Below, one piece after another: positions 410 through 48,093 of a DNA stretch of 64,000 nt (positions are counted from its first letter, which is position 1; each line of letters begins with the position of its first letter). A program made the position numbers and the translations under genes. The notes below the pieces were generated by a model that ran no database searches, was not told the origin of the DNA, and was given only the letters and a program-made list of their open reading frames with translations. The DNA is from Thermodesulfobacteriota bacterium (GTDB lineage: Bacteria; Desulfobacterota; Desulfobacteria; Desulfobacterales; C00003060). The stretch spans positions 1-64,000 of the forward strand of contig JAXHVD010000004.1 in NCBI GenBank assembly GCA_034189385.1, written 5' to 3'.

Positions 410-1558
410 ATGAAAATCTCTCATATCATCCTTTTGGCCATAGCTCTGATGCTGCTCCTGGTGGTGAGCAATTACCAAGCTATCTCCAAGATATGGTCCC
501 CTTCCCCCATAACAGCCCCCTTTTCGCCTGAGGCGTCTGAGGCAGGCGACGCCCCCTGGTACACCATGCAACTCCCTGTCCTTGGACAAGGTTTTAACGT
601 GTTGGTCCTCGTGGCTATTGGGTTCTCCGTGGGCATCCTGGGACGGTTTTTCGGGATGTTCGGTACGTGGATTGTGACGCCAGCCCTGCACATATTCGGC
701 TTTCCTGCGGCCATGGCCGTGGGCACAGACCTCACGCGAATGACTGGTGAATCTTACGTCACGGCCTACAAATATGCTAACCGGGAAGACGTGGATCCCA
801 AGGTGATTGTTCTCTTTGTCATGGGCATGGCCGTGGGCATTGAGATCGGCGTTCGGACCCTCTTGTGGCTCACCGGCCTCGATGTGGCCGGGACCGTGAT
901 ACGGGTTGTATACATGGTCGTTCTCCTGGGACTGAGCTTTTTCATCATCCTCGACTATTTGAAATCAAAGAGACAAAATGCTGGGTCCGGGGAAGGCATG
1001 GGCTGGACTGCCCCACCTGAGGGAGGCACTGCCGTGGCGCGCAAGCTCCAAGCCACCAACCTTCCCCCCATGATGACCCTGTCGTCTGGTGTAAGGGTCT
1101 CGCTGTGGAGCGTCTTGTTCATTGTCATGCTCACAGGTTGGTTCTTTGGGCTTCTAGGGGTGGTGGGCGGCCTTCTGCTTCTGCCCGCCATGATCTATCT
1201 CATGGGGATGCTTCCGACAACTGCTACAGGCATCGACCTCTTCAGCAGAGTCCTTTCCGGTACTTACGCCTGTCTGACCTATGCCTTGAAGGGCCAGGTG
1301 GAATTCCTGGGGGTTCTATGGGTTTTCCTGGGTATCATCATAGGGGTACAGGTAAGTGCCCGAGGGGCCCACTATATCCGTGGACAAGGGGTCCGGCTCC
1401 TTTTCGCCATCATCATGGCCATGGTGGGATTGTCCGTTGCGCTGAGGCAATTTGGCGCAACAGGTCTGTCCCACGTGATTTTGCTAGTTGCCATCCTTAC
1501 CATCTGTGCCATCGTCATCATCAAGCCGATCCAGGGCTTTCTGCAAAACCGACATTGA
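410..1558 (+). CDS. Sulfite exporter TauE/SafE family membrane protein
   Basis: Many TM helices, two internal repeats (GILGRFFGMFGTWIVTPAL..AVGTDL; GLLGVVGGLLLLPAMIYL..ATGIDL). Confidence 0.8.
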   Translation: MKISHIILLAIALMLLLVVSNYQAISKIWSPSPITAPFSPEASEAGDAPWYTMQLPVLGQGFNVLVLVAIGFSVGILGRFFGMFGTWIVTPALHIFGFPAAMAVGTDLTRMTGESYVTAYKYANREDVDPKVIVLFVMGMAVGIEIGVRTLLWLTGLDVAGTVIRVVYMVVLLGLSFFIILDYLKSKRQNAGSGEGMGWTAPPEGGTAVARKLQATNLPPMMTLSSGVRVSLWSVLFIVMLTGWFFGLLGVVGGLLLLPAMIYLMGMLPTTATGIDLFSRVLSGTYACLTYALKGQVEFLGVLWVFLGIIIGVQVSARGAHYIRGQGVRLLFAIIMAMVGLSVALRQFGATGLSHVILLVAILTICAIVIIKPIQGFLQNRH

Positions 1559-1578
1559 CAGGATCATGGTTGAAAATC

Positions 1579-4176
1579 ATGGCCAAGTTAAGAACGTTTT
1601 TCAAGAAGGTCTTCAAAGGAACAGACAAACCTGAAGAGTCCCCAGAAGCCCTCAGGTCCATGTTCAAGGTGAGGTACTGGAGTTTCAAGACCCTCTTGAA
1701 CGCCAATAACGCCGCCCTAGAGATCATCTCTGACATGGAGCGTGCCATTCACGGCACCCAGGGCTTTGGCATGGCCTTTATTCGGGCCAACTGCACTGCT
1801 GTCTCGGTCAATGTGTACAAGATCGTAGAGAACATGAACGCCCTTGCCCCCAACGGGTACCAAGCGCTCTTTGGCATCTTTGAAAAAATCCGAAATAAAG
1901 TAGATGGTGTGTTGGGTGAGCAGCGGGAGTTTGGGACGGGGAAACTGATACTTCCCCTTGAGGAAGTCAACAAGGATATGGCCGACCAAGTGGGCAACAA
2001 AATGGCGAACCTGGGAGAGATCAAGAATCTAGCGGGCCTCCCAGTCCCCGAAGGCTTTGTCATGACGGCCTCCGCCTACAAACGCTTTCTGGAACATAAC
2101 AGTCTCCAGGATGAGATCAATCGTCGAGTTCAACAGTTAAACCTTGAAGATATGGAAAAACTCCACACGGCAAGCGCCGATATTCAACAACTTATTATTC
2201 GTGCCAAACTTCCTCCTGAGCTTGAAGAGGCCATCCTTTCTCACTACAGGGGCCTCGAAAGAAAAACAGAAGAAGGCATTAACGTGTCCCTCCGCAGCAG
2301 CGCCCTGGGTGAAGACACGGAAAGGTCCTCCTTTGCCGGTCAGTACCGTTCAGAACTTAACGTACACCGTCAATTCCTGGGCCACACCTATAAAGAGATC
2401 GTGGCAAGCAAGTATACGCCTCAAGCAATCAGCTACCGCTTGAGCATGGGTTTCAAGGATGAAGATATTGCCATGTCTGTGGGTTGCATGGCTATGGTGG
2501 ATGCTGTTTCCTCAGGCGTCATGTATTCTGTCGATCCAGGAAACATTCGCAATAACGTGGTCTTCATTAATGCCGTATGGGGCCTTGCCAAAGCAGTGGT
2601 GGACGGCACCGTATCTCCAGATCTCTTTGTGATCTCCAAAGACCAGCCAGGACAAATCCTGAAAAAGGAGATCAGCACCAAGGAGCAGAGGTTTTTGTGT
2701 TTTGCCGAGGAAGGGGTGTGTCGCATGGCCCTAGTGGAAGGGGACAAGGACAAGCCTGCTATTGCTGATGACCAGGTATTAGCCTTGGCAGAGTTGGCCG
2801 CTCGCCTGGAAGATTATTATGGAAGTCCTCAGGACATCGAGTGGTCCATTGGACAAGATGGTGTGATAAGAATCCTCCAAAGCCGGCCATTGAGACAACT
2901 GGATGTAGAAACAAAGGCCATTGATGAGGTGACTAAACTCAAATTGGAGGCCCCTATTATCCTGGAAGGCGGGATCACGGCCAGCGGCGGAGTTGCCAGT
3001 GGACCAGCCTTTGTAGTCAATACCACAGTGGATATGCTCCAGTTCCCTTCAGGGGCCGTCTTGGTTACCCAACACAGTCTACCCCAATGGGCAGCAGCCT
3101 TGAGTCGTGCTGCTGCTGTGATTACAGATCGTGGGGGCATTGCGGGACATCTCGCCACTGTTTCGAGAGAGTTCAGTGTTCCCGCCCTCTTCAACACATT
3201 GGAGGCCACCAAGAAGATTGAAAATGGCACGATCCTCACCGTTGATGCAGAGGGACGGAAGGTCTACGAGGGGAAGGTGGAAGCCCTGCTAGAGGAGGCG
3301 TCTACCGCAAAGGTGAACCTCATGAAGGGCAGCCCTGTCTACAATACCCTGGAAAAGACCCTTCAATATATTTCCCCCCTGAACCTGACCGATCCCGATG
3401 GACCCGATTTCAAGCCCGAGGCGTGTCAGACCTATCACGACATCACCCGCTTTTGCCATGAAAAGGCCGTCAAGGAGATGTTTAGCTTCGGAAAGAAGTA
3501 CCACTTTCCGGAGCGTTCGAGTAAACAACTGGTCTGTGACATCCCTGTAAGATATTGGGTCATTGACCTTGAGGATGGATTCAAGGAGCCAGTTGAGGGC
3601 AACAAGGTGAAGTTGGAAAACATAGCGTCCATTCCCATGTTGGCCTTGTGGGAAGGTATCACGGCCATACCGTGGGGAGGTCCCCCTCCGGTCGACGCAA
3701 AAGGGTTTGCCGCCATCATGTTCCGCTCGACCATGGACCCGTCCTTGGATCCTGCGAGACAATCTCGTTATGCTGATAAGAACTACTTCATGATCTCAAA
3801 AAACTTCTGCAATTTAGCCTCTCGTTTTGGATACCACTTTTCAACCGTGGAGGCATTCTTAAGCGACAGGTCTAAGGAAAACTATGCGAGCTTCACCTTC
3901 AAGGGCGGGGCGGCCGATTTAGAAAGGAGAGTTCGGAGAATCAAGTTCATTGAGTATATCTTGGAACAATTCGGTTTTCGGATTGAGATCAACAAAGACT
4001 GGATGGTGGCCCGCTTGGAAGGATGCGAAAAGGATTATCTCATAGAACGGCTCAAGGTGCTCGGCTATGTCACCATGCACACTAGACAACTCGACATGAT
4101 TATGGCCAACCAGGCCAAGGTAAACTACTATATAGAACAGCACCTAAAGGATATACGTTCTTTCGTCTCCCTGTGA
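1579..4176 (+). CDS. PEP synthase/pyruvate,water dikinase-like protein (ATP-grasp domain + phospho-His swivel domain + non-TIM-barrel C-terminal domain)
   Basis: VGNKMANLGE, VSLRSSALGED..SFAGQY, PQDIEW, ILQSRP, TDRGGIAGHLATVSREF; start moved from the 1105 ORF start to ATG 1579 (MAKLRTFF) just after the TauE stop. Confidence 0.85.
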   Translation: MAKLRTFFKKVFKGTDKPEESPEALRSMFKVRYWSFKTLLNANNAALEIISDMERAIHGTQGFGMAFIRANCTAVSVNVYKIVENMNALAPNGYQALFGIFEKIRNKVDGVLGEQREFGTGKLILPLEEVNKDMADQVGNKMANLGEIKNLAGLPVPEGFVMTASAYKRFLEHNSLQDEINRRVQQLNLEDMEKLHTASADIQQLIIRAKLPPELEEAILSHYRGLERKTEEGINVSLRSSALGEDTERSSFAGQYRSELNVHRQFLGHTYKEIVASKYTPQAISYRLSMGFKDEDIAMSVGCMAMVDAVSSGVMYSVDPGNIRNNVVFINAVWGLAKAVVDGTVSPDLFVISKDQPGQILKKEISTKEQRFLCFAEEGVCRMALVEGDKDKPAIADDQVLALAELAARLEDYYGSPQDIEWSIGQDGVIRILQSRPLRQLDVETKAIDEVTKLKLEAPIILEGGITASGGVASGPAFVVNTTVDMLQFPSGAVLVTQHSLPQWAAALSRAAAVITDRGGIAGHLATVSREFSVPALFNTLEATKKIENGTILTVDAEGRKVYEGKVEALLEEASTAKVNLMKGSPVYNTLEKTLQYISPLNLTDPDGPDFKPEACQTYHDITRFCHEKAVKEMFSFGKKYHFPERSSKQLVCDIPVRYWVIDLEDGFKEPVEGNKVKLENIASIPMLALWEGITAIPWGGPPPVDAKGFAAIMFRSTMDPSLDPARQSRYADKNYFMISKNFCNLASRFGYHFSTVEAFLSDRSKENYASFTFKGGAADLERRVRRIKFIEYILEQFGFRIEINKDWMVARLEGCEKDYLIERLKVLGYVTMHTRQLDMIMANQAKVNYYIEQHLKDIRSFVSL

Positions 4177-4535
4177 GTTGAACGCCCGGCTTGTGGGTGA
4201 ACCGAAGCATCGGTCATAAAAAAATCCAAAAAGACCATCGGCGTTTTATGACAAGGAGATATTTTTGTTTACCACGCTGGCCTGCATGCATGTGTTCAGT
4301 AGCCTGACACATCCAAGGCATCTGGGCGAGGCCTCCGATGACATCCCTACACCGAAAGTGCTTTTGTCATTCGTGACTTTCTTGGTTGTGAGGCCTACTT
4401 CGGACCCATTATACTTCCTTGAGCCATTTGGATGAGGTGAAGAAGCAATGTTTTTTTCGTGGTGGTCTTTTGGGTGCTGCCTTTGCAGTGCCTTTTCAAA
4501 CAACGGGACAGTGGGAATAGAGGGGAGGTAGAACT

Positions 4536-4976
4536 ATGGTGCCGCTCAGAGTCCTAGTGGTGGATGACGAGGATGATTTCCGTCAGACCCTAGTAATGCG
4601 ACTGCAAAAGCGAGAGCTAGATGTGGTGGGAGTCCGAAGCGGGGAAGAGGCCCTTGAGTTGTTAGGTAAGAAGGGCTTTGATGTCGTTACTCTGGGCGTC
4701 AAAATGCCAGGCATGGACGGCGTGGAAGTCCTGGGAGAGATAAAGAAGAAATGGCCTCTCCTAGAGGTCATTATGCTTAGCGGCTGTGCCTCGGTGGCAT
4801 GCGGAGTTGAAAGCATGAGGCTGGGTGCTTTCGATTACGTTGTGAAGCCACCGGACATGGATGAGTTGTATGAGAAGTTGCAAAAGGCGTATGAAAGGAA
4901 ATCCCTGCAGGAAGAACAAGCTCACCATGCCAGGGCTAACGAAGGCAACGATCATCCCCAAAAGGCCGCTGAGTAG
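4536..4976 (+). CDS. Single-domain response regulator, atypical (phospho-acceptor Asp replaced by Gly)
   Basis: VLVVDDE..FDVVTLGVKMPGMDG..GAFDYVVKP; GGAGG RBS. Confidence 0.85.
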   Translation: MVPLRVLVVDDEDDFRQTLVMRLQKRELDVVGVRSGEEALELLGKKGFDVVTLGVKMPGMDGVEVLGEIKKKWPLLEVIMLSGCASVACGVESMRLGAFDYVVKPPDMDELYEKLQKAYERKSLQEEQAHHARANEGNDHPQKAAE

Positions 4977-5101: not shown

Positions 5102-7621
5102 GTGAGCGATAAGGTAAAATGCTGGGAGTATTTTCAGTGTGACAAGGCCCAATGCCCGGCTTACCAGTCAGAAGAGGCGATGTGTTGGGTTGCCTCGGGC
5201 ACCCATTGTCGAGACGAGATCCAGGGCAGGTTTCTGGAGAAGATGGAGATGTGCCTTGAATGCAAGCTCTTTAAAGAGAACATGAGTGTGGATTCAATGG
5301 TAAAAACCCTGAAGGTAGTAAACAGGCAGTTCACGGAATTTAGAGCGAGGGTGGAGCAATGCGATAGAGAGGCGCAAGGTGTCAGTATGGAGTTGGCCCT
5401 GGGGTTATCAGAGGCCTTTGAAGCCCTAAAACGGATTTCCTCTGGAGATCCTTTGGTCAGAATTGCTGAGACCTCGGGGCTTGAATTGATTTCTAAACTG
5501 AAGCACATCGTCAACCTGACCGCGGAAAACCTTGGAGAGATGGTTGATCTTTCTCATGAGTTCGCCATGGGGCTTGCCGAACACTTTAATGTCCTGCACA
5601 GAGTCTCAAAAGGGGACCTCACTGCCCAGGTATTGGGAAGTTCGCAATTGGAGCTCCTGGAATGCCTTAAGCAAGTCACAAATCAGATGATCGAGAGTGT
5701 CGCCAGGGAGATCAGGGAGCGGAAGAACGCAGAGGAGGCCCTTCGTGAATCTGAAGCAAAATACAGCGGGCTTTTGGAAAACTCACTGACGGGCATCTAC
5801 ATCGACCAGGATGGAAGGATCGTCTTTGCCAACAGGCGATTTGCTGAAATTTATGGCTATTGGAGAAGAACATTGATCGGCATGGAATCGTGGCGATTGG
5901 TCCATCCCGATGACAGGGCACTCACAAACGAAATGCGGGCAAAACGGCTCAAGGGCCAGCCAGTTCCGTCGGAATACGAAGCCAAAGGCCTCACAAAAGA
6001 TGGCCGAACCATATGGATTATAAGGAGAAACAAGCGGATAGAGTACGAGGGACGGCCTGCTGTCTTGGGTAACATCGTGGATATCACACAAAGAAAACGG
6101 GCAGAACAGGCCCTGCGAGAACGGGAGGAAGAACTCAGAAAAAGACATCACGAGCTAGAGGCCGTAAACAGCATCCTTGTACGGGTCACAGAGCAATACG
6201 ATCTGAATGGTATGGGCCGTGTCCTCCAAGACACGATGGAAGAATTCTACCCAAAGATTCATACTCTCCTCTTCCTTCTTGTGCCAAACGGAGAGGGCTT
6301 TTACTTGCCCCAGGGAAGGCGGGGTCAGAGTAAACCAACCTGCTATGATCGAGCCACAGACAGAATCAAGGACCCCGACCTGGAGCACGATCTGCTTACC
6401 TTGTTAACCACTGAAAAGGTCCGGCCCCTTCACTCCGGGGAAAAGGCTCATGGCCCGGCCATCATCCAGCGTCTCGCCCAGGAATATAGGGCGTGGATGG
6501 CCGTCCCTATTGAAGTGGACGAGGTATGCTATGGACTTTTTCTGGTGGGATCACCGTTCAAAGACGTCCCAGTAGAGGAAGATTTGATCTTTATGGAATC
6601 CCTGATCCGCCGAATTTCCGGGGTAATCAAGAATCAGATTTCCAAGGAGCTTCGGGAGGAAGCATTTAAAAGGCAGCTGACCGGTCCGGACAAATTCATG
6701 GGCATCGTCGGCCAAAGTCAGCCTATGCAAAAGATCTACCGTATGATCGAGGCAGTGAGTGATTCAGAAAGTACGGTCCTTGTTACGGGCGAGAGTGGAA
6801 CGGGAAAAGAGCTCTTGGCCCGTGCCATTCACCAAGCAGGCAAATACAGGGGGACTCCGTTTTTGGCTGCCCATTGCTCTTCCTTTGTCCCCACGCTGGT
6901 CCACTCCGAGCTTTTTGGACACGAGAAAGGGGCGTTTACAGGGGCTTCTAAGCGCAAACTTGGACGGCTGGAGCGAGCTCAGGGCGGCATTCTCTTCTTG
7001 GATGAGGTCGCTGATTTGCCTCTTGAGACCCAGGTCCTCCTTCTTAGATTTCTGCAGGACAAGAGTTTCGAACGGGTGGGCGGTGAATATCCTGTTGAGG
7101 CCAATGTAAGGATTATTGCGGCTACCAATAGACAGGTTGAAAAGGAGTTGGAGTCCGGTCGTCTTAGAGAGGATTTCTATTATCGGTTAAATGTGGTGCG
7201 TATCCATGTGCCTCCCCTTCGCGAACGTATCATGGACGTACCTTTGCTGGCGAATCATTTCCTTCGGACCTACTGTCTCATTGAGGGAAAAGAGGTGGCG
7301 GGATTTGATACAGAGGCCATGCAATTGATCATGCATTATCACTGGCCCGGGAACGTGAGAGAGCTCCAAAACACCATCGCCAGATGTGTGGTGTTGTCCT
7401 CAGGGCCCTCTATCCGGGCCGAGGACCTGCCCCAGACCGTCCATACTCCCCACAGGGCTGCGACGGACTACTCGCTGGCAAAAAATGAAAGGGACCTCGT
7501 CTTGCAGGTACTCAATAAATGCAACTGGAACAAACACGAAACCGCCCGCGTACTCGGCATCAGCAGAACAACTCTATATAGTAAGCTGAAAAAACACAAC
7601 ATTCGACCACAAGCCATCTGA
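5102..7621 (+). CDS. Sigma-54-dependent activator: Cys-rich two-CW module, HAMP-like region, PAS, GAF-like, AAA+, Fis HTH
   Basis: GESGTGKE, SELFGHEKGAFTGA, LFLDEV, WPGNVRELQN, LGISRTTLYSKL. Confidence 0.92.
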   Translation: MSDKVKCWEYFQCDKAQCPAYQSEEAMCWVASGTHCRDEIQGRFLEKMEMCLECKLFKENMSVDSMVKTLKVVNRQFTEFRARVEQCDREAQGVSMELALGLSEAFEALKRISSGDPLVRIAETSGLELISKLKHIVNLTAENLGEMVDLSHEFAMGLAEHFNVLHRVSKGDLTAQVLGSSQLELLECLKQVTNQMIESVAREIRERKNAEEALRESEAKYSGLLENSLTGIYIDQDGRIVFANRRFAEIYGYWRRTLIGMESWRLVHPDDRALTNEMRAKRLKGQPVPSEYEAKGLTKDGRTIWIIRRNKRIEYEGRPAVLGNIVDITQRKRAEQALREREEELRKRHHELEAVNSILVRVTEQYDLNGMGRVLQDTMEEFYPKIHTLLFLLVPNGEGFYLPQGRRGQSKPTCYDRATDRIKDPDLEHDLLTLLTTEKVRPLHSGEKAHGPAIIQRLAQEYRAWMAVPIEVDEVCYGLFLVGSPFKDVPVEEDLIFMESLIRRISGVIKNQISKELREEAFKRQLTGPDKFMGIVGQSQPMQKIYRMIEAVSDSESTVLVTGESGTGKELLARAIHQAGKYRGTPFLAAHCSSFVPTLVHSELFGHEKGAFTGASKRKLGRLERAQGGILFLDEVADLPLETQVLLLRFLQDKSFERVGGEYPVEANVRIIAATNRQVEKELESGRLREDFYYRLNVVRIHVPPLRERIMDVPLLANHFLRTYCLIEGKEVAGFDTEAMQLIMHYHWPGNVRELQNTIARCVVLSSGPSIRAEDLPQTVHTPHRAATDYSLAKNERDLVLQVLNKCNWNKHETARVLGISRTTLYSKLKKHNIRPQAI

Positions 7622-8905: not shown

Positions 8906-10438
8906 TCAAGGTTTCTTGCTTGTTTGGGCGGTGCAAGGCACACGAATCGTAAAGGTTGACCCTCTTCCACGTTCCGAGTCAACAGACATTGTCCCTCCGT
9001 GTCTCTGGACTATCTTTTGCGTAATCAGGAGGCCGAGACCGGTACCTTTTGCTCCCTTGGTGCTGAAAAAACCGGCAGTGATCTTTTCCTGCACTGTCTG
9101 GCTCATACCGCAACCGTTGTCAGAAACCTGAAGTGCCAAGACTCCATCACTCCCACGCCTTGTGGTGACCCGCACAAGGTTTCCCTTCCCCTCCTCTTGC
9201 GCAGACGCACAGGCGTCAATCGCATTACAGACCAGATTTAGCAGGCACCGATGAATCCCTTTAGGGTCCAGAGATACCTTGCCTATGGTCGCATCCAGAC
9301 CCCTGACAATCTCTATACCCGATTCCTCTGCCTTGCGATTCATGAGCTCGCACACCTCATCTGCAATGGCGTTGGGATCGCACGCTTCATATTCAGGCTT
9401 ACATTCTTTGGAATAGTCCAGGAGATCCAACACTAGGCTAGAAATCCTGCCGATACTTGGTTGAACGATGTCCCAGCCAGCCCTGATTTTACGCATATCC
9501 TCTTTTTTGAGCCCCTTATCTACTACATTGACGCCACCCTTCAGGCCAATCAAGATATTTCTAATGCAGTGGGCAAGACCGGCCACAGTTTCTCCAGTAG
9601 CAGCTAACCTTTCGGACCTTACGAGTTCCTGTTGTAACCGCTTCATCTCCCTTAGGTCGTGGAGAAATCTGACGCTACCAATGACCTTCCCATTTCGATG
9701 GAGCAGGCTCCCTGAAAATCTTACCGGTATCTTCTTGCCGCCTTTGTCTAAAACAAAGGCCTCCCGCCAGCTTCCCACACCCTCTTTATGGTATTCTCCA
9801 ACGTCAACACTTTGCCCGATTTCTTCGGCTGTCCCAGGCGGGTAAAGACTGCCAATGTTCTTCTTTCCTATCACCTCATTCTCAGAATAGCCAAGGATCT
9901 TCTCGGCCCCTTGGTTAAAGGTTATGATAGTCCCCTCTTCATCAGTGGCTATGATACCGTCGATGGAATGGCGAATCAGGTTGCCTTCAAAATCGAACCT
10001 CTCCCTCAATGCTTCTGTGGCTTCCTTGACACTACTTTCCAGATTGTCAGTATATGCCTTGAGCTTCCTTCTGGTATCGAATCTCTCCTCAGCCCGCCTT
10101 ATGGCAACGGATAGGGCCTTATTGCCAACAGGCTTTGTGATAAAATCCGAAGCGTCAAGTTGGAGAGATTGAATGGACAGGTTCATATCTCCATGGCCGG
10201 TAATGACAATGACCTCCGTTTCCGGGCTGATTTCTTTAATCTCTTTTAGTACCTCTATGCCATCCATACCAGGCATCTTGATATCGGTCAGTACAATAGG
10301 AGGTCTTTCTTGCTGGAATAGCTCCATCCCCGTTTTCCCGTCGCCGGCCGTGATGACCTCGTAACCTTTACTGCGCAGGTATAATCCCACAATTTTTCTT
10401 ACAGGTTCCTCATCATCGATAATTAGAAGCTTCGGCAT
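8906..10438 (-). CDS. Hybrid receiver-PAS-histidine kinase
   Basis: LLIIDDE..LTDIKMPG; PAS; AGLAHCIRNIL H-box; NLVCNAID, DNGCGM, GTGLGL. Confidence 0.92.
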   Translation of the reverse strand: MPKLLIIDDEEPVRKIVGLYLRSKGYEVITAGDGKTGMELFQQERPPIVLTDIKMPGMDGIEVLKEIKEISPETEVIVITGHGDMNLSIQSLQLDASDFITKPVGNKALSVAIRRAEERFDTRRKLKAYTDNLESSVKEATEALRERFDFEGNLIRHSIDGIIATDEEGTIITFNQGAEKILGYSENEVIGKKNIGSLYPPGTAEEIGQSVDVGEYHKEGVGSWREAFVLDKGGKKIPVRFSGSLLHRNGKVIGSVRFLHDLREMKRLQQELVRSERLAATGETVAGLAHCIRNILIGLKGGVNVVDKGLKKEDMRKIRAGWDIVQPSIGRISSLVLDLLDYSKECKPEYEACDPNAIADEVCELMNRKAEESGIEIVRGLDATIGKVSLDPKGIHRCLLNLVCNAIDACASAQEEGKGNLVRVTTRRGSDGVLALQVSDNGCGMSQTVQEKITAGFFSTKGAKGTGLGLLITQKIVQRHGGTMSVDSERGRGSTFTIRVPCTAQTSKKP

Positions 10439-10477: not shown

Positions 10478-12538
10478 TTATCCGTCTTCTGGAGATCCAG
10501 GGAACCGCAATTCAAAGGTTGTCCCCTTGCCTACTTTACTTTCTACCCTGATAGTTCCGCCATAATCCTTGACAATCCCGTAGCTGATAGAAAGCCCCAG
10601 TCCGGTGCCTTTGCCTACTTCCTTAGTGGTAAAAAAGGGATCGAATATCCTGTCTATAATATCGTCTGGAATGCCACTACCCGTGTCCGATACGGTAACT
10701 GTGACGTCTCCGTTGTCAAGGAAGGATTTTATCTGCAATAGCCTAGTTGAACGGGGTGCTTTCTCCTCCATGGCATGCCTGGCATTGGTCACCAAGTTTA
10801 TAAAGACCTGTTCTAGTTTATTGCTATCTGCCATGATGGGAGGCAAATTTTCATCCAGGTCCAATTCTAATTCAATTTCACGCAGTTTCAGTTGCTGACC
10901 CAATATTTTAAAAACATCTCGGATCGGTTTGTTGACATCTACCTCTTCAGCTTTGGTGTCCGCTATCCTGGCAAAATCTCGCATATGCTTAATAATTGCA
11001 GAGGCTCTATCCACCTGGTTGCTCATTTCTTCAGTCACCGTATTGAGTTCTTCACCGGTCACCTTTTTGCCCTCGCTCGCCATCTCTCTGAGAAAGTCAC
11101 TGCCGATCTTCATAACATTAAGTGGTTGGTTCAATTCATGGGCAATGCCCGCCGCCATTTCCCCCAAGGTCGCAAGTTTGCTAGCCTGAATTAACTGGGC
11201 TTCTTTCTCCACACTCTCTGTCACATCGGTCGTGGTAGCAATCAGGGCATCTCTTTCCATATAGCTGCAGCCACATACATGGATGTTTGTATAGAACAGC
11301 CTGCCGTCTTTTCTGCGGTGTTGCTTCTTGGAAAAAACGATAGACCTATGATCCGTGACATCTTTGAAACGTACCATAATTTCTTGTGCATCTTCCTTAT
11401 AACCCAGATCTAGGAAAGACATGTTCAGAAGCTCTTCTTTCGAATAGCCATAATGGACCTCAGCCCTGCCATTTGCGTCCAGAATCTTCAGTGTTTCACG
11501 ATCCAGAATAAAAATAGGGTTCGGATCGCTATCAAATAGGAGCCTATATTTTTCCTCCGACTGCCTCAGCTCTTTCTCAGAGGCCTTTAACTTGTCAAGC
11601 ATATGTTTAAATGAATCGGCCAACTGAACCATTTCGTCGCCCACATGGCTTCTGTAGACCTTGCATTTTCGGCACTCCTCCAACTTTTCTGGGAAGCTTC
11701 CTGAAGCCTGGCCTTGACAGAGGGTCCCATCCTGGTACCAACAGAGCGTCTCAGGATTTCCATGTGCCGGGCAGTTCGTTTTGTCACATTTTTCCACTTC
11801 CCAGCATTTCAGCCTCCTACCAAATTCGAATCCTGGCTTTCCCCTACTGATCTCATCGGCCAGGTCGGTCAGGGTGCAAAGGGGTCGTGTAATGTATTTT
11901 GACAAGAATAGAGTCAGGAAAAAAGCCACAACGACGATAGAAACAACTCCCAAGGTAATCTCTCTATTCCTGAGGGCTGCGATCCTCTCCTCTATGGGGC
12001 CCCAGCTAATGCCTACGGTCAAGACGCCCAGTATTCTGTCTTCAGCCCAATGGCACTTATGACACGTTGTTTCATTGGCGATGGGCATGGCATGCTCAAG
12101 TATTTTTTCTCTTCCCTGCATCTCCAAGCCCTTTACGAGGGAATGCGTGCGTAACGCCTTCTTGGCAGCCTCAGAATGATCACGTTGGCCTATGTTGGCC
12201 GGTAATCCACTATATTTGATGGTACCCTTAAGATCGCAAAGATTTACCACTGTCACATTTTGCAAGGTGTACAAGCTCTCCAAGATGGCCTGGACGTCCT
12301 CCATCTCTCCGTCGAGCATGGGATACTCAATACTTCTCATGACGGTGTCACTAATCTCATAGGCTCGTTCTTCCTGTTTGTTAAAGTGGAACTTCGTGCG
12401 CGTCACCATGTCATAATAGGTGAAAAGGCCCATGACGACGGTCAGGATCGCGCTCACACCCAATATGACCTTAACCGTCAAGCTGGCTACATGGAGCCTA
12501 GACCGTAGCCTCTCCAAAAATCGCATCGTTCGTCCCAT
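10478..12538 (-). CDS. Membrane sensor histidine kinase: periplasmic CxxCH domain, HAMP interrupted by a two-CW module, PAS, kinase
   Basis: Two TM segments flanking [28 protein letters not shown]; start at ATG 12538 after GGAG (ORF track gives GTG 12568). Confidence 0.9.
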
Positions 12539-12589
12539 CTTCTTGACTCCCGATATGCCCACGCTCACAGCGGCAGGTCTGGCAACAGC

Positions 12590-13024
12590 TTAATATCCAG
12601 GATGCTTGTGGCCGCTGTGACAGGTTGTGCAAAGATTCTGTGGTATGCTCAATGTCTCCTGATGCTCCAACTTGGTAGGAGCTTTGAGGTGAAGGCTGGC
12701 CGGTCCGTGGCAACTTTCACACTGCTTGTTGACCATTCCCGGGGTCTCTTCCATACTGCTAAATCCTCCCGTCTTACCGTAGCCTGTCGTATGGCAAGGC
12801 AGACAGTTTGGGTCATGATCTTTTCTTCTCATCTGTATAATCCGAAAGTTTTTTGAGTATTTCCACGAGTAGTAGCTCTCCACATGTTCTGGATGGCACT
12901 CTTTGCACTTCTCCATGCCCACATAGGTGGCCTTCTCTTTTTCACTCCACACATAGGGTGCGAACAAGGCAAAGAGGCAAACAGCAAAAACCCCCATGGC
13001 CATGGTACAAATTAATTGTCTCAT
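12590..13024 (-). CDS. Periplasmic tetraheme cytochrome c (c554-like)
   Basis: Signal/anchor sequence then CKECH, CLPCH, CESCHGP, CTTCH; ATG 13024 with GGAGG RBS. Confidence 0.88.
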   Translation of the reverse strand: MRQLICTMAMGVFAVCLFALFAPYVWSEKEKATYVGMEKCKECHPEHVESYYSWKYSKNFRIIQMRRKDHDPNCLPCHTTGYGKTGGFSSMEETPGMVNKQCESCHGPASLHLKAPTKLEHQETLSIPQNLCTTCHSGHKHPGY

Positions 13025-13373
13025 CGGGACCTCCCATACTTCTTCCGTGGTATTATCATAACACATTAAAATAAAATGTTATTATTACGCAGAAACCGAC
13101 CCAGAAAAAAAGCAACCGTGTTTTCAATCCTTGTCCCTGTGCCATAAAACGTTTGACATCTACTAACAGGACGGGGTAAGATTTCTTTGCTTTAACTGGC
13201 TGGTATTGTACAACCTTTTTGCAGCGGCAAGCAACCTTCGGTTAACCCCTCCATCAGAAAATGGTAAACTAAATCTAAAGTAATCCACCAGTTCAACATG
13301 GCACGAGTCTCGTCAGATCAACTGATTTGCAAGGATTGATGCTGACCGATTTTCACAATTAAAGGAGCGAGGC

Positions 13374-13736
13374 ATGGAAAAATTCTTGTTCGTCATCTCC
13401 AAGGGATTTGAAAAATCAGGAGCTGCAACGCGAGCATTACAGTTAGCGAGCATTACAGCGGGAAAGGGTCTTCATGTGGAGATCTTCTTGATCGATGACG
13501 CCATCCATTGGGCTCAGTTAGGCATGGCTGAAGGCATCCGTGCCACGACAGGTGAACATATGAAAGACCTTCTGGACGAACTCATCAGTAAGAAGACCCC
13601 TATCCATGTTTGTGCAGCCTGTGCAAATAAGAGGCTTGTTTCACCAGATGACTGCATTGAAGGCTCTGTGGTCTCTGGGGCAGCTGTACTTGTGGACATG
13701 ATGATTGATCCCCAGTACAAAGTGTTTACCTTTTAG
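13374..13736 (+). CDS. DsrE family protein
   Basis: VEIFLIDDAIHW..HVCAACANKR, 120 aa, AAGGAG RBS. Confidence 0.8.
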   Translation: MEKFLFVISKGFEKSGAATRALQLASITAGKGLHVEIFLIDDAIHWAQLGMAEGIRATTGEHMKDLLDELISKKTPIHVCAACANKRLVSPDDCIEGSVVSGAAVLVDMMIDPQYKVFTF

Positions 13737-13767: not shown

Positions 13768-14151
13768 TCAGGGCAACAAATCGTTTACCATTTTGAGAAC
13801 CGTCTCTGGGTTCATTGGCTTTTCAATATATCCCTCGGGCGCTGGGATGTCTTGATCTTGTCTTACCAATACGTCGTCAAATCCCCCACCTCTTGTAATC
13901 CCTGTAACAATGATAACGGGAATATTCTTGGTTTCATCGTCATGCTTCAGATTCTGATACATGCCAATGCCACCCTGTTCGGGCATCATGATATCCATCA
14001 ATATGAGATCTGGTTTCTCTGCCTTGGCCTTATTCATTCCTTCTCTGCCATCCATAGCAGTTATTAATGTGTGACCAGTTTCTTCCAATATGGTGGATGC
14101 AAAGTCTATTTGCTCAATTTCGTCATCAACGATGAGGATCTTTTTCGCCAT
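13768..14151 (-). CDS. Single-domain response regulator
   Basis: MAKKILIVDDE..LMDIMMPEQGG..YIEKP. Confidence 0.88.
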   Translation of the reverse strand: MAKKILIVDDEIEQIDFASTILEETGHTLITAMDGREGMNKAKAEKPDLILMDIMMPEQGGIGMYQNLKHDDETKNIPVIIVTGITRGGGFDDVLVRQDQDIPAPEGYIEKPMNPETVLKMVNDLLP

Positions 14152-14219
14152 AGCAGCCGTCTCCCTCCCATCTCTTTGCACCTTTTCCAGCCCCCTGGAC
14201 CATGCACCAAAGGTCTTCC

Positions 14220-16565: not shown

Positions 16566-18059
16566 TCATAACTGTGGCACAGCGAATGCGATGATGTTGG
16601 ACAAAATCGCCTGATTGTACAGGCCTATCAGAATGATACCTAGGGCTATAGCAATGGTTGGAATTAACATGCTCAGGGGGGCCTCGTCTATTATGGCGCC
16701 GTGGCCCGCCGCGCTGTGGGTGTTTCCCCCGTGAGATGCCTGGAAGACGTATCCAATTTCAATCACGCGAAAAAAGAGAACCACGCTAATGAGACTCGAT
16801 AAAAGCAAGGCGATGAGAAAGGCCCAATGATCAGCTATGACGGCCCCCTGAATAAGATACCACTTGCTAAAAAATCCGCAGGTGGGGGGAACTCCGATGA
16901 TGGACAAGGCACCGACCACGAAAGCAAACATGGTAAAGGGCATCTTTTTGAAGAGGCCGTGAAAATCAGATATATCATGGGATTTCGTCTTGTACATGAT
17001 GATGCCAGCAACCGTAAAGAGCCCTACCGTCATCACGGCATCATTGAGGATATGAAGGACTGCTCCCTTCATGGCTATCGTGTTGGCCAATCCTACGCCA
17101 CCAACAATATAACCCACCTCTGCCACTACAACATAACAGAGCATCCTTTTGAAATCAGTCTGGGCAAGGGCCATTATGCCGCCCCCTAAAATGGCAACGA
17201 AGCCGGCCCAGACCATGATGTCCGTAATCGGTAGCAGCTCTATAGATAAGTGGGGCTTAAACACGCTAAAAAGGACTCTGATCATCACATAGAGCGATAT
17301 CTTGGTCATCAAGGGGGCAATCAGGGCGCTGGTAGCTGAAGGGGCCTTTGTATAGGCGTCCGGCAGCCACACATGGACAGGGAAAAGGGCCATCTTGACT
17401 GCTAACCCCGCAAGGAGGAATGCGATGGCTGTTAGAATGACCCTTGAATCGTACAATTGGGGAAGTAGTTGATAAACATCGGCCATATTAAGAGAACCGA
17501 TTGATATATAGATGTAGCCAACACCTAATAGATAAAAACAAGCGCCGATGGTTCCCATGACAATGTATCTGAAAGTGGCCAGGGGGGCCCCATCCTCGCC
17601 AATGGCGATCAGGGCATAGCCGGCCAGAGAGCCAATCTCCAAGAACACATAAAGATTGAAGAGATCTCCGGTGATGACGATGCCCAAAAAACCCGTCACC
17701 TGCAGCAAAAACACCGTGTAAAAGTAAACGACTCTTCCGGGCAATTCCTGTTCAACGGTTCGCTTCGAATACAAGGCCACAATCAGGCTGATCGAAGAGA
17801 CGATCACCAACATCATGGCATTGAGATGGTCCACCACATATTCGATCCCGAAGGGAGGGGCCCAGCCCCCCAGACGATAGTGAATAGTGCCGCTGGCTAT
17901 CACGGCAAACAGGGTGTTAATAGATGCCAGAACACACAATGAAAGGGCAACAATGGCCCAAAGGTAGCATAGGCCTCGCCTCCACAGTCCAATAAGGGGA
18001 CAAAAAAGGGAAGATACCAAAGGAATGACAACAATGAGGATGGGGATCTGCGCTATCAT
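16566..18059 (-). CDS. mrpD: Mrp cation/H+ antiporter subunit D (cluster 1)
   Basis: YRLGGWAPPFGIEY, DLFNLYVFLEI, KMALFPVHVWLPDAY, GFFSKWYL. Confidence 0.9.
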   Translation of the reverse strand: MIAQIPILIVVIPLVSSLFCPLIGLWRRGLCYLWAIVALSLCVLASINTLFAVIASGTIHYRLGGWAPPFGIEYVVDHLNAMMLVIVSSISLIVALYSKRTVEQELPGRVVYFYTVFLLQVTGFLGIVITGDLFNLYVFLEIGSLAGYALIAIGEDGAPLATFRYIVMGTIGACFYLLGVGYIYISIGSLNMADVYQLLPQLYDSRVILTAIAFLLAGLAVKMALFPVHVWLPDAYTKAPSATSALIAPLMTKISLYVMIRVLFSVFKPHLSIELLPITDIMVWAGFVAILGGGIMALAQTDFKRMLCYVVVAEVGYIVGGVGLANTIAMKGAVLHILNDAVMTVGLFTVAGIIMYKTKSHDISDFHGLFKKMPFTMFAFVVGALSIIGVPPTCGFFSKWYLIQGAVIADHWAFLIALLLSSLISVVLFFRVIEIGYVFQASHGGNTHSAAGHGAIIDEAPLSMLIPTIAIALGIILIGLYNQAILSNIIAFAVPQL

Positions 18060-18063
18060 CTTC

Positions 18064-18459
18064 TCAACCTCTCTTTATGCTCATGATGATTTCGTCTTCT
18101 TCTAATGTGTTATATCTCCTGTAAATCATGATGCAGACCGCTACGGCCACGCCCAGAGTAGCCACCATGACCACAATGGCCGTAAGCATGAGCACATGGG
18201 GTAAGGGATTGGCATATTGCATGATGTTAACGGCATGGTGAGCACCATGGCCTCCGTGGCCATGCTCCAGAATGGGAACGGTGACCCCACCCTTCTTGAC
18301 GGATGTGGAGATATAAAAAAGTATGATAGCAGACTGAAATATGTTCATCCCGATGATCTTCTTGATCAAATTCTTCTTTGCCATCATCGCGTAGAAGCCT
18401 ATCATCATTAGACCTACATAAGCCCAATAGTTATAATGGCTCACAACGAATTCAAACAT
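18064..18459 (-). CDS. mrpC: Mrp antiporter subunit C (cluster 1)
   Basis: NLIKKIIGMNI..NPLPHVLMLTAIVV..YNTLEEDEI. Confidence 0.9.
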   Translation of the reverse strand: MFEFVVSHYNYWAYVGLMMIGFYAMMAKKNLIKKIIGMNIFQSAIILFYISTSVKKGGVTVPILEHGHGGHGAHHAVNIMQYANPLPHVLMLTAIVVMVATLGVAVAVCIMIYRRYNTLEEDEIIMSIKRG

Positions 18460-18469
18460 GGCGCTTCTC

Positions 18470-18745
18470 CTACTTGCTACGTCCCCTTCTCAATAATAAT
18501 ATGCATGCCATGCCAGCCGTAAAGATAACCGTGGTCTCCCCCAGGGTGTCATAACCTCTGTAGTCAGCCAGGACCGAGGTCACCACATTAGGCGTTGCCG
18601 TTTGTTCCAGGCTGTGGTGAAGGTAATAGGCCGATACATGTGTACTGGCGGCAGAATGGGGGTCACCCCATTTGGGCATATCGAGGGTCCCATAGATGAG
18701 TCCGGCCCCGACAAGTACTCCGGTAATAACGCTTAAGGTTTTCAA
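18470..18745 (-). CDS. MbhE/MrpA-C-terminal-like small subunit (cluster 1)
   Basis: PNVVTSVLADYRGYDTLGETTVI. Confidence 0.85.
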   Translation of the reverse strand: MKTLSVITGVLVGAGLIYGTLDMPKWGDPHSAASTHVSAYYLHHSLEQTATPNVVTSVLADYRGYDTLGETTVIFTAGMACILLLRRGRSK

Positions 18746-18987
18746 TCTTTTGACCTCCTCTCCGTTTTACTCACTGCCCCGATCATGAGCACCGTTCCGA
18801 TACTGGCACTTACAGAGGCTTCTGTAAATGCCACATCAACGGCGGCCATTTGAGTCCAAAGGAGACACATCAGGAAGCTATAGGCACCCAGAATGACGAC
18901 TGCACTCAAAAGGTCTCTGATGGTAATAGCTGCCACGGCACAGATGAATACAAAAAGAATTAAGATGAGATCCAAGGGGAGAATCAT
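18742..18987 (-). CDS. DUF4040/MbhD-like Mrp subunit (cluster 1)
   Basis: AVDVAFTEASV motif; ATG 18987 overlaps the mrpG stop. Confidence 0.85.
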   Translation of the reverse strand: MILPLDLILILFVFICAVAAITIRDLLSAVVILGAYSFLMCLLWTQMAAVDVAFTEASVSASIGTVLMIGAVSKTERRSKD

Positions 18988-19304
18988 TTTTCGCCTCCTT
19001 TTGCCAGAGTCCACGGCCGGACATTACATCTGAAGGCCGCCCTTGAGATAGCGTGGGTGGCTGTGGGTTGTGCCAGGAATAAAAACACCGCTATAAAGAC
19101 AATCTTTGCGCTCGTGAGTGTAAATCCGTGGTATACGGCAAGCCCGGCAAGGGACCAAAGGGCCGCCAGGGTATCTCCCTTGCCAGTGGCATGGAGTCTG
19201 GTAAAAAAATCGGGTAAACGTAGCAGGCCCAAGGTGGCCGTGGCAAAGAAGAAGAAACCACCCAACATAAACAATACCGCTAGAATGTCTTTGACTGGCA
19301 TCAC
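18984..19304 (-). CDS. mrpG: Mrp antiporter subunit G (cluster 1)
   Basis: GLLRLPDFFTRLHATGKGDTL..PTATHAI. Confidence 0.9.
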   Translation of the reverse strand: MMPVKDILAVLFMLGGFFFFATATLGLLRLPDFFTRLHATGKGDTLAALWSLAGLAVYHGFTLTSAKIVFIAVFLFLAQPTATHAISRAAFRCNVRPWTLAKGGEK

Positions 19305-19567
19305 GCTTCTCCCGTTCTCTCGATATATTTTGCCAGGACCACCGTACCTATGAAATTCAAGAGGGCATACACCATGCTGATGTCGATAAACATGTCTATC
19401 CTGTCATAGATAACGCCCATGATGAGCAAGATGATCAATGTCTTGGTACCAATGGCAGAGATGCCGGCGGCCCTGTTTAAGACTCCTGGCCCATAGGTGG
19501 CCCGATAAAGACAACACAACACCAAGACGCACATTCCCACACTCAGGATCAAGAAGAAATCGATCAT
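19301..19567 (-). CDS. mrpF: Mrp antiporter subunit F (cluster 1)
   Basis: YRATYGP..DISMVYALLNFIGT. Confidence 0.88.
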   Translation of the reverse strand: MIDFFLILSVGMCVLVLCCLYRATYGPGVLNRAAGISAIGTKTLIILLIMGVIYDRIDMFIDISMVYALLNFIGTVVLAKYIERTGEA

Positions 19568-20028
19568 TTTCCACTCCGATCATCTTCCAGGGATTCACCC
19601 ACGGTGAATATGACAAAAAAGATGGTAAACATAACCGCCATGACGGCCAGGGCCACGCCGATCTCAACGCCCAAGATTCCCAGAGACCTCGCCTGGGCCG
19701 GTGTGACACGAAGGACCTTGCTCAGCTTGCCATAATCGAGATAGTTCCCCCCCAGAATGAGACAAAGGGCCCCGATGCCTGCATAGATAAAAACTCCGAT
19801 ACTGCTGATGACCCCTGCCACCTTTTCAGACATGCGTTTTCTCGTTTCTCCCAGGCCGTAACTGATACCCAGCAACACGAAACCTGCCGCCAAGATGACA
19901 CCCCCTTGAAAGCCTCCCCCCGGGCTGTGATGCCCGTGCATGACCACATAGAGGGCATAAACGATAATAAAGGGCATCAACAATCTGGCCAGTGTCTTCA
20001 CAATGACGTCTTGACTATCCCGTATCAT
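19564..20028 (-). CDS. mrpB: Mrp antiporter subunit B (cluster 1)
   Basis: HGHHSPGGGFQGG..EIGVALAV. Confidence 0.9.
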   Translation of the reverse strand: MIRDSQDVIVKTLARLLMPFIIVYALYVVMHGHHSPGGGFQGGVILAAGFVLLGISYGLGETRKRMSEKVAGVISSIGVFIYAGIGALCLILGGNYLDYGKLSKVLRVTPAQARSLGILGVEIGVALAVMAVMFTIFFVIFTVGESLEDDRSGK

Positions 20029-20070
20029 CCTCCCCCCTTGTTGATAACAACTTACCTGACATGAGACTAT

Positions 20071-20790: not shown

Positions 20791-20823
20791 TTTCGTCCTC
20801 CTTTGTGAAATGCCTCCCGGCGA

Positions 20824-21585: not shown

Positions 21586-22019
21586 TGCCCTACTTCGTCC
21601 CTGTCGTCAGATTTATCAGATGAGCCCGGGCTCAATATCTGTTTCACCGTGGCTGCCAGCCGCTCAGGTGTCACAGGTTTTTCCAGATAGCCATCTGGAT
21701 CCGGGACACTCCCACCCCTGCATTCCGTCTGGGCGGCCTGTGCGCGCAATGCGGTTCTCTTAGCCACTCCCGAATATATGATCACTGGAATGTCTTTCAA
21801 AGACTCAGAGGTCTTAAGCTTACGATAAAGCCTAATCCCGCTCTCTTTTGGCATCAGAATATCCAGAATAATTAAATCCGGTTTCTGTTGCCTGATAATA
21901 TCCAAAGCTTCCTCACCGTTTGTTGCCTGGATAGGCGTATATCCATTCTCTTCCAGCACAGTGGAAACAAATTCCCTCACATGGTCTTCGTCATCCACGC
22001 TGAGTACGGTCTTTAACAT
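21582..22019 (-). CDS. Single-domain response regulator
   Basis: VLSVDDE..ILDILMPKESG..YLEKP. Confidence 0.88.
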   Translation of the reverse strand: MLKTVLSVDDEDHVREFVSTVLEENGYTPIQATNGEEALDIIRQQKPDLIILDILMPKESGIRLYRKLKTSESLKDIPVIIYSGVAKRTALRAQAAQTECRGGSVPDPDGYLEKPVTPERLAATVKQILSPGSSDKSDDRDEVGQ

Positions 22020-35377: not shown

Positions 35378-35380
35378 CCC

Positions 35381-45450: not shown

Positions 45451-48093
45451 ATGGTGAAAGAGAAAATCAAATGCTGGGAGTTTTTCCATTGCAACGAGGT
45501 GGACTGCCCAGTTTTTAAAGCAAAGGAGGTGATGTGTTGGCTCATCTCCGGAACCCATTGTCGAAATGAGATCCAGGGCAAGTTTCTGGAGAAAATGGAG
45601 ATGTGCCTCGAATGCGAGGCCTTTAAGGCAAACATAGATGTGGATTCGATGGAAGCGACCCTAAAGGTGCTCAATGGGCAGCTTAGAAAATTCAGAAAAA
45701 TGGTGGAGGAGCGCGATAGAGAGTTACAGGGCATCAGTCTGGAGTTGGCCTTGGGTTTGTCGGAAGTCTTTGATGCGTTGAAGGAGATTTCCTCAGGAGA
45801 CCCTTTGGTGAGGATACCCGAGACCTCAGAACTCGAGTTGATCTCTAAGTTGAAACACCTGGTGAACCTGACGGCAGAAAACCTTGGAGAAATCGTTGAT
45901 CTTTCTCATGAATTCGCCATAGGTCTTGCTGAGCACTTCAATGTGCTGCACCGGGTCTCAAAAGGGGACCTGACCGCCCGGGTGGCTGGGACTTCCCAAT
46001 TGGAACTCTTGGAATCCCTGAAGGAGGTCACCAACGATACCATCGGTAGTGTGTTCACGGCTATCTCCGAGTGCAAGATTGCACAGGAAGAGTTGCTAGA
46101 GAGCCAGGAGAGATATCGGACGGTTCTGGAGGCCTGTCCGGACCCACTGGTTGTTTATGATATGGAGGGTAAGGTTATCTATATCAATCCGGCATTCACC
46201 TGGATCTTCGGATGGACCCCAGAAGAACTTTTGGGGACAAAAATTGACTATGTTCCAGATGAGAACTGGCCGGAGACCCAAATGATGATCGACAAGGTTC
46301 TGGCAGGGGAAAGTTTCTCCGGGGTTGAAAGCCGTCGATATAACAAAGAAAGAAACATCCTCAACGTCAGTATAAGCGCAACGATCTACCTAAATCGTGA
46401 GAGAGTTCCATGGGGAAGTGTCCATATCCTGCGAGACATTACCGACCAGAAGCGGGCTGAAGCAGCGCTTTTGGAATCAGAGGACAAGTACAAGACCCTT
46501 GTTGAAAACTCCCTGACGGGCATCTTCATCCACCAAGAGGGAAGGTATGTGTTTGTCACTGACAGATTTGCAAGCATGCATGGTTATACACAGGAGGAAT
46601 TGCTGGGAAAGGAATACTTGTCGCTAATTCATCCCGACGACAGGGAAGCCCTTGCCCAGACCGTATCGGCGAGGCTGGAGGGAGAAGTGGTTCCTCAACA
46701 CTACGAGGTTCGGAGACTCAAAAAGGGCGGAAAGACCGTCTGGTGCGAAATGATAGCAACCCGCATCGACTATGGGGGCAGGCCTGCTATCATGGGAAAC
46801 ATTATAGACATTACTGAGCGGAAACAGGCAGAGCAGGCCCTGCGAGAGGCTCGCAACGGATTGGAGCTGCGCGTGAAGGAGCGCACGGCGGAATTGACCA
46901 AAGCAAACGAACAACTAAAACACGAAATAGAAGAGCGGAAGCGGGCTGAGCAAGAAGTAAAGTTGAGCGAGGAAAAATATCGTCTTCTGTTTAGTAAGGA
47001 CCCCAATTCTCTCTTCTTGGTTGACGGCGATTCTGGCAACATCCTAGATGTGAACAATGCAGCCACCTTGACATACCAATATGCGCGCGAGGAACTGATG
47101 CAGATGTCCTTTCTGGATTTGTTCGATGCCGACGAAGCCCGAGAGATCCAGAACGAACTGCAAGACTATCACAAGGATGTGTACGTCTTCATACCCAGGA
47201 CATCGGCAAAAAAAAAGGACGGGCGTCATTTCTTTATTCATCTCCACGCCGGTGCAGTCCAGTTTGAAAAACAGGGGACAGAAGAACTGGGGCGGGCCTT
47301 GATTATCAGGACTGTGGATATTACCCGGCGGCTTGAACAGGAGGCTATGCTCGCCCAAGCCGGCAAAATGGCAACGCTTGGCGAGATGGCAACAGGTGTT
47401 GCCCATGAACTGAATCAGCCATTAAATGTCATACAGGTAGGGACCGATTTCCTGACCAAAACGATCAATAGAGGTCGAAAGTTTTCTCACGACGAGCTTT
47501 TGAAGGTGAGCCGGAACATCAGTGAACAGGTAGAGCGGGCCACGAACATCGTCGACCACCTTCGGGAGTTTGGCCGCAAGAGCGACCTGGAGGTCTACCC
47601 TGTGGACGTGAATGAGCCTATCCGAAGTGTGTTTACGCTCTTAGGCCAGCAGCTGAACTTACGAAACATCGTGGTTGATCTCAAGCTGGCCCCCAACCTG
47701 TCCAAAATCTTGGCCGACAAGAACCGGCTGGAGCAAATCTTTCTGAACCTGGTCACCAATGCCAGAGATGCCATGGAGGCGAAGGGGCCTGGGGCTGTCA
47801 AAAAGCTCACCATTGCCACCTACCAGGAAGGAAGAAGGGTGGCGGCTACGGTCTCGGACACAGGCAAAGGGATGGAAAAAGGGATTCTGAAAAAGATATT
47901 TGATCCCTTTTTTACCACCAAAAAGGCGGGTAAAGGGACTGGCCTGGGGCTGTCCATCAGCTACAACCTGGTGAAGGACTTCAGGGGACACATAGACGTG
48001 GAATCGACTCCTGATGTAGGCACCACCTTTACGGTTAGTTTCCCGGTGTATGATGAACAAGGAGATCATAGTGATGAAGCTACTCGTTATTGA
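45451..48093 (+). CDS. Histidine kinase: two-CW module, HAMP-like region, 3 PAS
   Basis: [40 protein letters not shown]. Confidence 0.92.

Follow-up and report, generated by a model that had tools for sequence, protein, structure and literature searches.

In the 64,000-nucleotide stretch of Thermodesulfobacteriota bacterium contig JAXHVD010000004.1 analysed here in full (the window; source genome, 4.13 Mb), three signalling proteins carry a short cysteine-rich module, the two-CW domain, whose existence was already known and to which this genome adds a lineage-expanded soluble cassette. We tentatively read this domain of about 50 residues as a cytoplasmic metal centre, likely of the Fe-S type, that would probably act as a redox or small-molecule sensor; judged from sequence, the reading falls just short of an even chance. 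Since the genome carries dsrA above cut-off and the named relatives of the membrane kinase described below come mostly from Deltaproteobacteria/Desulfobacterales assemblies, we infer that the host is a sulfate-reducer-type anaerobe.

Three two-CW domains in the window

Scanning the whole window in six frames returned three copies of the motif and no others. Copy 1 (5117..5278, +) heads a sigma-54 activator, copy 2 (45469..45630, +) heads a soluble histidine kinase and copy 3 (11648..11809, −) lies in the HAMP connector of a membrane histidine kinase; Pfam confirmed these three host types, which the initial annotation had proposed. Each copy contains two Cys-Trp dipeptides and a closing CxxC, and all share the spacing CW-x4-C-x4-CP-x8-CW-x3-GTxC-x7-FxEKxExCxxC (first bases of the Cys codons from 5120 to 5261 (+), from 45472 to 45613 (+) and from 11806 to 11665 (−)), so that the x8/9 and x6/7 variants allowed earlier are unneeded. 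The module had been entitled 'six-Cys' and counted in the text as having seven conserved Cys: seven is right for every copy (Cys7, 13, 18, 28, 36, 51 and 54 of the activator), and six fits the invariant set only.

All three copies passed the curated cut-off (35 bits) of NF045718, 'two-CW domain-containing protein', over positions 2–76 of its 80-position model, with 40.2, 39.3 and 41.9 bits for copies 1 to 3 and E-values of 1e-10 to 7e-10; the name given earlier to the module was thus correct. Six further copies in the genome also passed, two of them only with neighbouring residues. The window copies represent a short form, about 54 residues with a 4-residue C2–C3 loop. The model carries a name only, and neither the N-terminal cassette nor the sigma-54 fusion is part of it. 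The same name has already been applied by NCBI to relatives in Nitrospirota and Thorarchaeota, the Thorarchaeota proteins (about 186 residues) scoring as tandem copies.

The domain was rightly called uncharacterised, as neither a describing paper, a Pfam family nor a solved fold was found. The literature search left out subscription journals and supplements, so a listing in a supplementary table is possible. Pfam had no family for the three window copies, and over 101 diverse members it gave scattered matches only (E 0.01–0.09, at most two members per family). Sequence searches of the PDB gave two non-significant matches for copy query A1 (E 0.65 and 1.8) and none for A3; the ESM Atlas had no match for a window copy, and a stand-alone relative led to unnamed clusters only.

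A soluble cassette repeated in one genome

A whole-genome profile search returned nine two-CW open reading frames at 80–125 bits, the next best match scoring 13.7. The profile was seeded by the three window copies, which match by construction; the other six scored 80–101 bits. The nine copies fall into two wirings: seven N-terminal cassettes, and two domains that interrupt the HAMP of a membrane kinase. Each cassette spans about 205 residues and consists of two-CW, a coiled coil and two HAMP-like repeats. The seven cassettes are 63–74% identical pairwise over 200 residues, and no hydrophobic segment was detected in the seven proteins.

In the window, one cassette opens a sigma-54 enhancer-binding protein (bEBP) of 839 residues (5102..7621, +), in which it is followed by PAS, an unassigned region (GAF-like by eye), AAA+ and a Fis helix-turn-helix (HTH), with matches to PF00158, PF02954 and PAS. 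This activator is intact, having Walker A at 563, GAFTGA at 610, Walker B at 632 and the C-terminal HTH. The other opens a soluble histidine kinase of 880 residues (45451..48093, +), where it extends to about 46074 and precedes three PAS, HisKA (His652) and HATPase by Pfam. An activator paralogue at 26316–28577, 64% identical over 514 residues (324–836), is without the cassette, as is the window paralogue of the kinase at 51092–53740, which has another N-terminus. The outputs swap with other inputs; two-CW therefore fills a slot used by other sensors, which supports the input-domain position proposed for it. The remaining cassette outputs in the genome are two hybrid kinases, of which one carries two REC and Hpt, a HisKA_3 kinase, the smallest of the cassette kinases (G000:C11:52756-51251), with just HisKA and HATPase behind the cassette, and a protein with HisKA as its only output domain. 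This last (G000:C7:50560-49649, 304 residues) ends after HisKA without an ATPase domain; since a form of about 300 residues recurs among homologues, the gene may well be unbroken and its product a genuine partner for phosphotransfer or dephosphorylation.

The domains of copies 1 and 2 are 67% identical and their cassette tails 76%; the membrane copy is 40–46% identical to these domains and lies in another tree branch. The mobility claimed for the module holds, while the two N-terminal copies are one duplicated cassette, so that the window contains two independent placements and not three. A kinase and an activator reading one signal, also proposed earlier, is plausible from sequence for the two cassette copies. 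The idea of an undescribed sensory system did not survive: the domain is catalogued and widespread, and the three genes that carry it in this signalling island are separate and do not make up a self-contained new system.

In the activator, the remainder of the cassette (5288..5719, +) comprises a coiled coil at about residues 63–97 and HAMP-like repeats at about 98–147 and 154–206. The repeat period is 56 residues, with 20 of 61 identities at offset 56 and 2–8 at the other offsets from 48 to 61. AlphaFold2 (AF2) placed long helices at 63–113, 128–169 and 184–206, interrupted by two connectors. Among 70 cassette members, HAMP_2 was matched by 12 and HAMP by 9 at E≤0.05 (best E 0.0004–0.002). 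Foldseek with the cassette model gave weak matches to 3lnr, 4i44, 2y0t and 2y20 (E 1.3–2.4), none significant, and a PDB sequence search with the helical part of the cassette gave no useful match. The idea that the helix after an N-terminal two-CW is a leftover HAMP AS2 was not supported, its register lying about 1.2 standard deviations above the mean and outside the best eight. The second repeat (5552–5600 and 45904–45950) holds strongly conserved His/Glu residues (His152 99%, His161 92%), figures inflated by the closeness of the homologues; several of these residues map to the predicted dimer interface and might together make up a second metal site.

The cassette was predicted to form a parallel dimer, with an ipSAE of 0.49 against 0.00 for the best control, a contact agreement between runs of at least 93% and a pLDDT of at least 80; the mark used for this score was reached by 20 of 30 solved homodimers and by one of 23 single chains. 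Predicted contacts join 102–113 with 129–143′ and 165 with 193′, and like with like at 70, 77 and 84, a pattern consistent with two HAMP bundles and a coiled coil that runs parallel; likeness to solved HAMP dimers may itself account for the pass. The predicted arrangement resembles that of Aer2-type poly-HAMP receptors and the Af1503 HAMP in combining a soluble sensor, tandem HAMP-like bundles and modelled parallel-dimer contacts. The input of Aer2 is PAS-heme, whereas that of the cassette is two-CW, its outputs are kinases, bEBP, GGDEF and HD-GYP, and its structural matches are not significant.

Beyond this genome, the best 120 of 806 longer homologues had two-CW within the first 40 residues in 119 cases and aligned over the whole cassette in 108; their outputs were five sigma-54 activators (one being that of the window), five GGDEF and one HD-GYP, the rest being kinases or fragments. 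With one and the same query, 14 of 24 same-genus genomes yielded a near-full-length cassette, often more than once, and the 16 other genomes searched in the order yielded none. It also occurs in Nitrospirota and Desulfobulbaceae, going by source names, and the HAMP pair without two-CW occurs behind periplasmic or PAS input.

Insertion into the HAMP connector of a membrane kinase

Copy 3 belongs to a membrane histidine kinase of 696 residues (10478..12568, −) with the order transmembrane segment (TM), periplasmic heme-c Cache/PAS-type sensor, TM, HAMP interrupted by two-CW, PAS, HisKA (His477) and HATPase. The insert is preceded by AS1 (about 11905–11840) and the beginning of the connector and followed by the DE of AS2 (from 11641), and PF00672 aligns on both sides of it (26.3 bits on a 127-residue fragment for a cut-off of 25, and 21.2 with the complete kinase). 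In 44 of 44 distinct sequences, all of them selected by the DE motif, this motif stands 8 residues past the last Cys. A paralogue without insert (G000:C3:16923-16069), 45% identical over the sensor and with the same heme motif, has an uninterrupted HAMP (53.5 bits), which places the insertion point at the connector end. The initial annotation put every copy next to HAMP-like helices: the membrane copy goes further and sits inside a Pfam-level HAMP, and the soluble copies do so less closely, their repeats starting about 40 residues downstream and scoring below Pfam cut-offs.

The same paralogue lacks an output domain and lies directly upstream of the second HAMP-inserted two-CW kinase of the genome (contig C3), of which it is a possible heterodimer partner. 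In that second kinase (G000:C3:16065-14017) the fifth Cys is replaced by Phe.

The periplasmic CxxCH of the window kinase (residues 169–173, 12064–12050) lies between the two TM, and the domain passed PF21563 with 32.7 bits (cut-off 27). PF11845 (Tll0287-like) did not match it, and two paralogues reached 19.5 and 20.7 bits for a cut-off of 24.1. Heme-c Cache domains fused to signalling modules are described as having properties typical of nitric oxide sensors (PMC12889525). The membrane kinase shares the periplasmic CxxCH and PF21563 with these sCache_heme (GSU0582-GSU0935-type) sensors and misses PF11845, the Pfam family of that paper; the passages of it that we consulted do not mention a HAMP with a two-CW insert behind such a sensor (PMC12889525).

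A tetraheme cytochrome c (12590..13066, −; four CxxCH, PF13435) lies directly upstream of this kinase, and a REC-PAS-kinase hybrid (8906..10438, −, by Pfam), its likely relay partner, directly downstream. Across 30 related loci, which are kin and so not independent and several of which are truncated, the heme motif was found in 24 kinases, an adjoining four-heme cytochrome in 17 and a REC-kinase hybrid within two genes in 22; the window locus has all three.

Family distribution and cysteine conservation

NF045718 was found in 110 of 301 genomes of the phylum and in none of 14 control genomes, and a profile of the 101 diverse domains matched 2734 clusters at 50% identity. Among the top 150 representatives, 75 are at most 130 residues long. 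A Pfam match was obtained for 43 of the 52 with at least 180 residues (none for the other 9), and every one of the 43 belongs to signalling: 15 histidine kinases, 12 chemoreceptors, 4 GGDEF, 3 HD-GYP, 3 PAS-only and 2 REC proteins, with single cases of a Ser/Thr kinase with PP2C, a nucleotide cyclase, a Cache-HAMP-PAS receptor and a hemerythrin. Together with the nine genome copies, this range of hosts (histidine kinase, chemoreceptor, GGDEF, HD-GYP, Ser/Thr kinase, HTH and REC) carries the mobility of the module well beyond the window. In a tree made by a quick method from 70 columns and 101 rows, HTH fusions form their own clade (SH-aLRT 98), as do the cassettes (SH-aLRT 99); the grouping of cassettes with HAMP-inserted domains (SH-aLRT 81) is too weak for inferring origin. 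Small proteins of HTH and two-CW (about 130–160 residues) are common in the phylum and are candidate one-component regulators; the same pair heads PAS kinases of about 755 residues. Two-CW is also fused to a cyclic nucleotide-binding domain and a Ser/Thr kinase, one form adding a second copy and a PP2C phosphatase.

We examined Cys conservation in two sets. In the first (168 domains from the top 150 of the 50%-identity representatives), C1 to C4 and C6 are Cys at every non-gap position, C7 is Cys in 166 of 167 and C5 in 161 of 168 (6 Ser, 1 Arg). In the second (237 distinct domains from the loci and close homologues, matches below 30 bits being dropped), C5 is Cys in 232, the exceptions including the Phe of the contig C3 copy. 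Both sets were gathered with Cys-rich profiles, so the conservation is in part selected; the weakness of C5 survives this bias. An eighth ligand (a His before C5, or an extra Cys) was sought and rejected as clade-specific, 49 of 161 parsed domains having neither a His nor more than seven Cys. Two independent four-ligand sites are therefore not general, and a bridged two-metal site, or one cluster with an extra Cys, would fit better. The modal Cys spacings (5, 4/7/14, 9/10/20, 7, 14, 2) agree with neither the ferredoxin 2[4Fe-4S] pattern CxxCxxCxxxCP nor the Zn2Cys6 pattern CX2CX6CX5-12CX2CX6-8C.

By hydropathy the domain is cytoplasmic: it comes after TM2 in both membrane kinases, and follows two or four N-terminal segments in 21 of 26 representatives with predicted TM. 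Structural disulfides are unlikely in the cytoplasm, and hence unlikely here. The AF2 model of the domain (pLDDT 80.1, pTM 0.63) is compact and poor in secondary structure, a build typical of metal-organised folds; a first run had given a pLDDT of 37–60 for the domain because its alignment was shallow. Foldseek with the loop-rich model of 66 residues gave a single match (E 6.6) and VIA-align none among 48161 chains at Z≥2, which, given how small the model is, is no proof of a new fold.

Possible roles: metal-thiolate sensor, structural module or thiol switch

Under the reading that we favour, a change at the metal site (oxidation, cluster loss, or ligand binding at an exchangeable fifth-Cys position) would shift helix packing in the HAMP relay and so tune the activity of a kinase or of AAA+; in the parallel cassette dimer, the final helix of two-CW is predicted to continue into the coiled coil. 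In the membrane kinase, a heme signal from the periplasm would be integrated with the cytoplasmic one from two-CW. By way of the soluble cassette, a single cytoplasmic state would reach several kinases as well as sigma-54 transcription. An Fe-S site is favoured because of the anaerobic hosts, the redox-type neighbours and the precedent of NreB, an Fe-S sensor kinase whose cluster has an exchangeable ligand (PMC13478379). Two-CW would likewise be a cytoplasmic Cys-ligated cofactor site controlling a histidine kinase and having an exchangeable ligand position; however, the NreB site is a [2Fe-2S] held by three Cys inside PAS, while two-CW has six or seven Cys and is not PAS (PMC13478379). Two-CW matched neither PAS nor any other Pfam family and gave no match to a PAS-like fold, so that an NreB-type site within PAS was not found.

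Several observations weigh against this interpretation. Two-CW has no ferredoxin-type CxxCxxC motif, none of the 43 annotated representatives is fused to an electron-transfer enzyme, and neither Foldseek nor VIA-align pointed to a structural relative that would hint at the cofactor. A closing CxxC in a domain of 50 residues is equally typical of Zn sites, and the stand-alone short copies and the C-terminal copies on kinases and chemoreceptors fit docking or partner binding equally well. A restriction to anaerobes would rest on genomes of one phylum and 14 controls, and the controls without NF045718 include Methanosarcina and Methanocaldococcus. The partial selection of Cys described above counts here too. 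As to the relay, the cassette repeats stay below Pfam HAMP cut-offs (PF18947, 13.4 against 24.3 bits; no match for isolated repeats), and hhalign of the repeats with one intact HAMP gave a probability of 0.3%.

The same small size, closing CxxC, six invariant Cys and lack of an eighth ligand, for which a bridged binuclear site fits, would suit a structural Zn module, such as a pair of Zn bridged by six or seven Cys; this module would stabilise dimers or dock a partner protein, and would modulate output through such binding and not through chemical sensing of its own. The many stand-alone, tandem and C-terminal copies agree with such a role, as does the position of domain residues 45–58 inside the predicted dimer interface. 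On the other hand, two-CW is swapped like an input domain before many outputs, it is found inside a HAMP connector, a position coupled to signalling, the Zn2Cys6 spacing does not fit, and all 14 control genomes lack the domain. We consider a structural Zn module possible and rather unlikely.

One replaceable Cys beside six fixed ones would also be expected of a Zn-thiolate or thiol switch, in which the fold depends on Zn, and oxidation, persulfidation or metal exchange, acting on an exposed fifth Cys or on the CxxC, frees the Zn and alters the output. The window has sulfur-related neighbours, DsrE at 13374–13736 and TauE at 410–1558, and single proteins pair two-CW with oxidant or O2 sensors (CZB in three chemoreceptors, hemerythrin in one). 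However, loss of the fifth Cys in intact-looking kinases (the contig C3 copy; 7 of 168 domains) would be odd if this residue were the reactive sensor, and DsrE stands beside the kinase in none of the 30 related loci. Such a switch is improbable in our view, below the structural Zn module.

A bolder form of the Fe-S reading seems to us equally improbable. Here two-CW would have an undescribed fold with an unusual six- or seven-Cys Fe-S site, in which either a cluster is accompanied by two redox-active Cys or several irons form a bridged cluster that has one exchangeable ligand. It would act in the cytoplasm of anaerobes as a general sensor of redox state or sulfide, and a single genus of sulfate reducers would have combined it with tandem HAMPs into a plug-in cassette, through which one signal governs kinases, enzymes of cyclic-di-GMP and a sigma-54 activator.

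Other features of the window

Directly upstream of the activator, at 410–4976 (+), lie the TauE-family membrane protein (410–1558), a phosphoenolpyruvate-synthase-like protein and a single REC protein. The synthase-like protein has PPDK_N and the mobile domain, is below all NCBIfam cut-offs and probably starts after the listed GTG 1105. No target was assigned to the activator in a search for sigma-54 promoters, which found five one-mismatch sites in the window for 5.1 expected; an exact −24/−12 consensus occurs at 105–119 (−), directed off the left end of the contig. Single-domain response regulators are encoded near two of the two-CW kinases, at 44549–45025 (+) and 13768–14181 (−), and their homologues recur in related loci; the former resembles the DVU0259 family below its cut-off (104 against 160). 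Two Mrp-type Na+/H+ antiporter operons lie in the same dense signalling island, at 16566–25636 (−) and 34121–42095 (+), and MrpD-like genes are also found near the membrane kinase in several related loci. At 53842–55746 (+), a B12-binding radical SAM protein scores above the TIGR03975 cut-off (maturation C-methyltransferase of ribosomally synthesised and post-translationally modified peptides).

Significance

Little is known about the means by which strict anaerobes, sulfate reducers among them, sense the state of redox or sulfur inside the cell. The soluble cassette offers a small, membrane-free test object with natural controls in its own genome: outputs with and without the cassette, HAMP with and without the insert, and a copy without the fifth Cys. 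Two-CW is found on nearly every kind of signalling output, and while its existence is not new, its cofactor and its signal would be.

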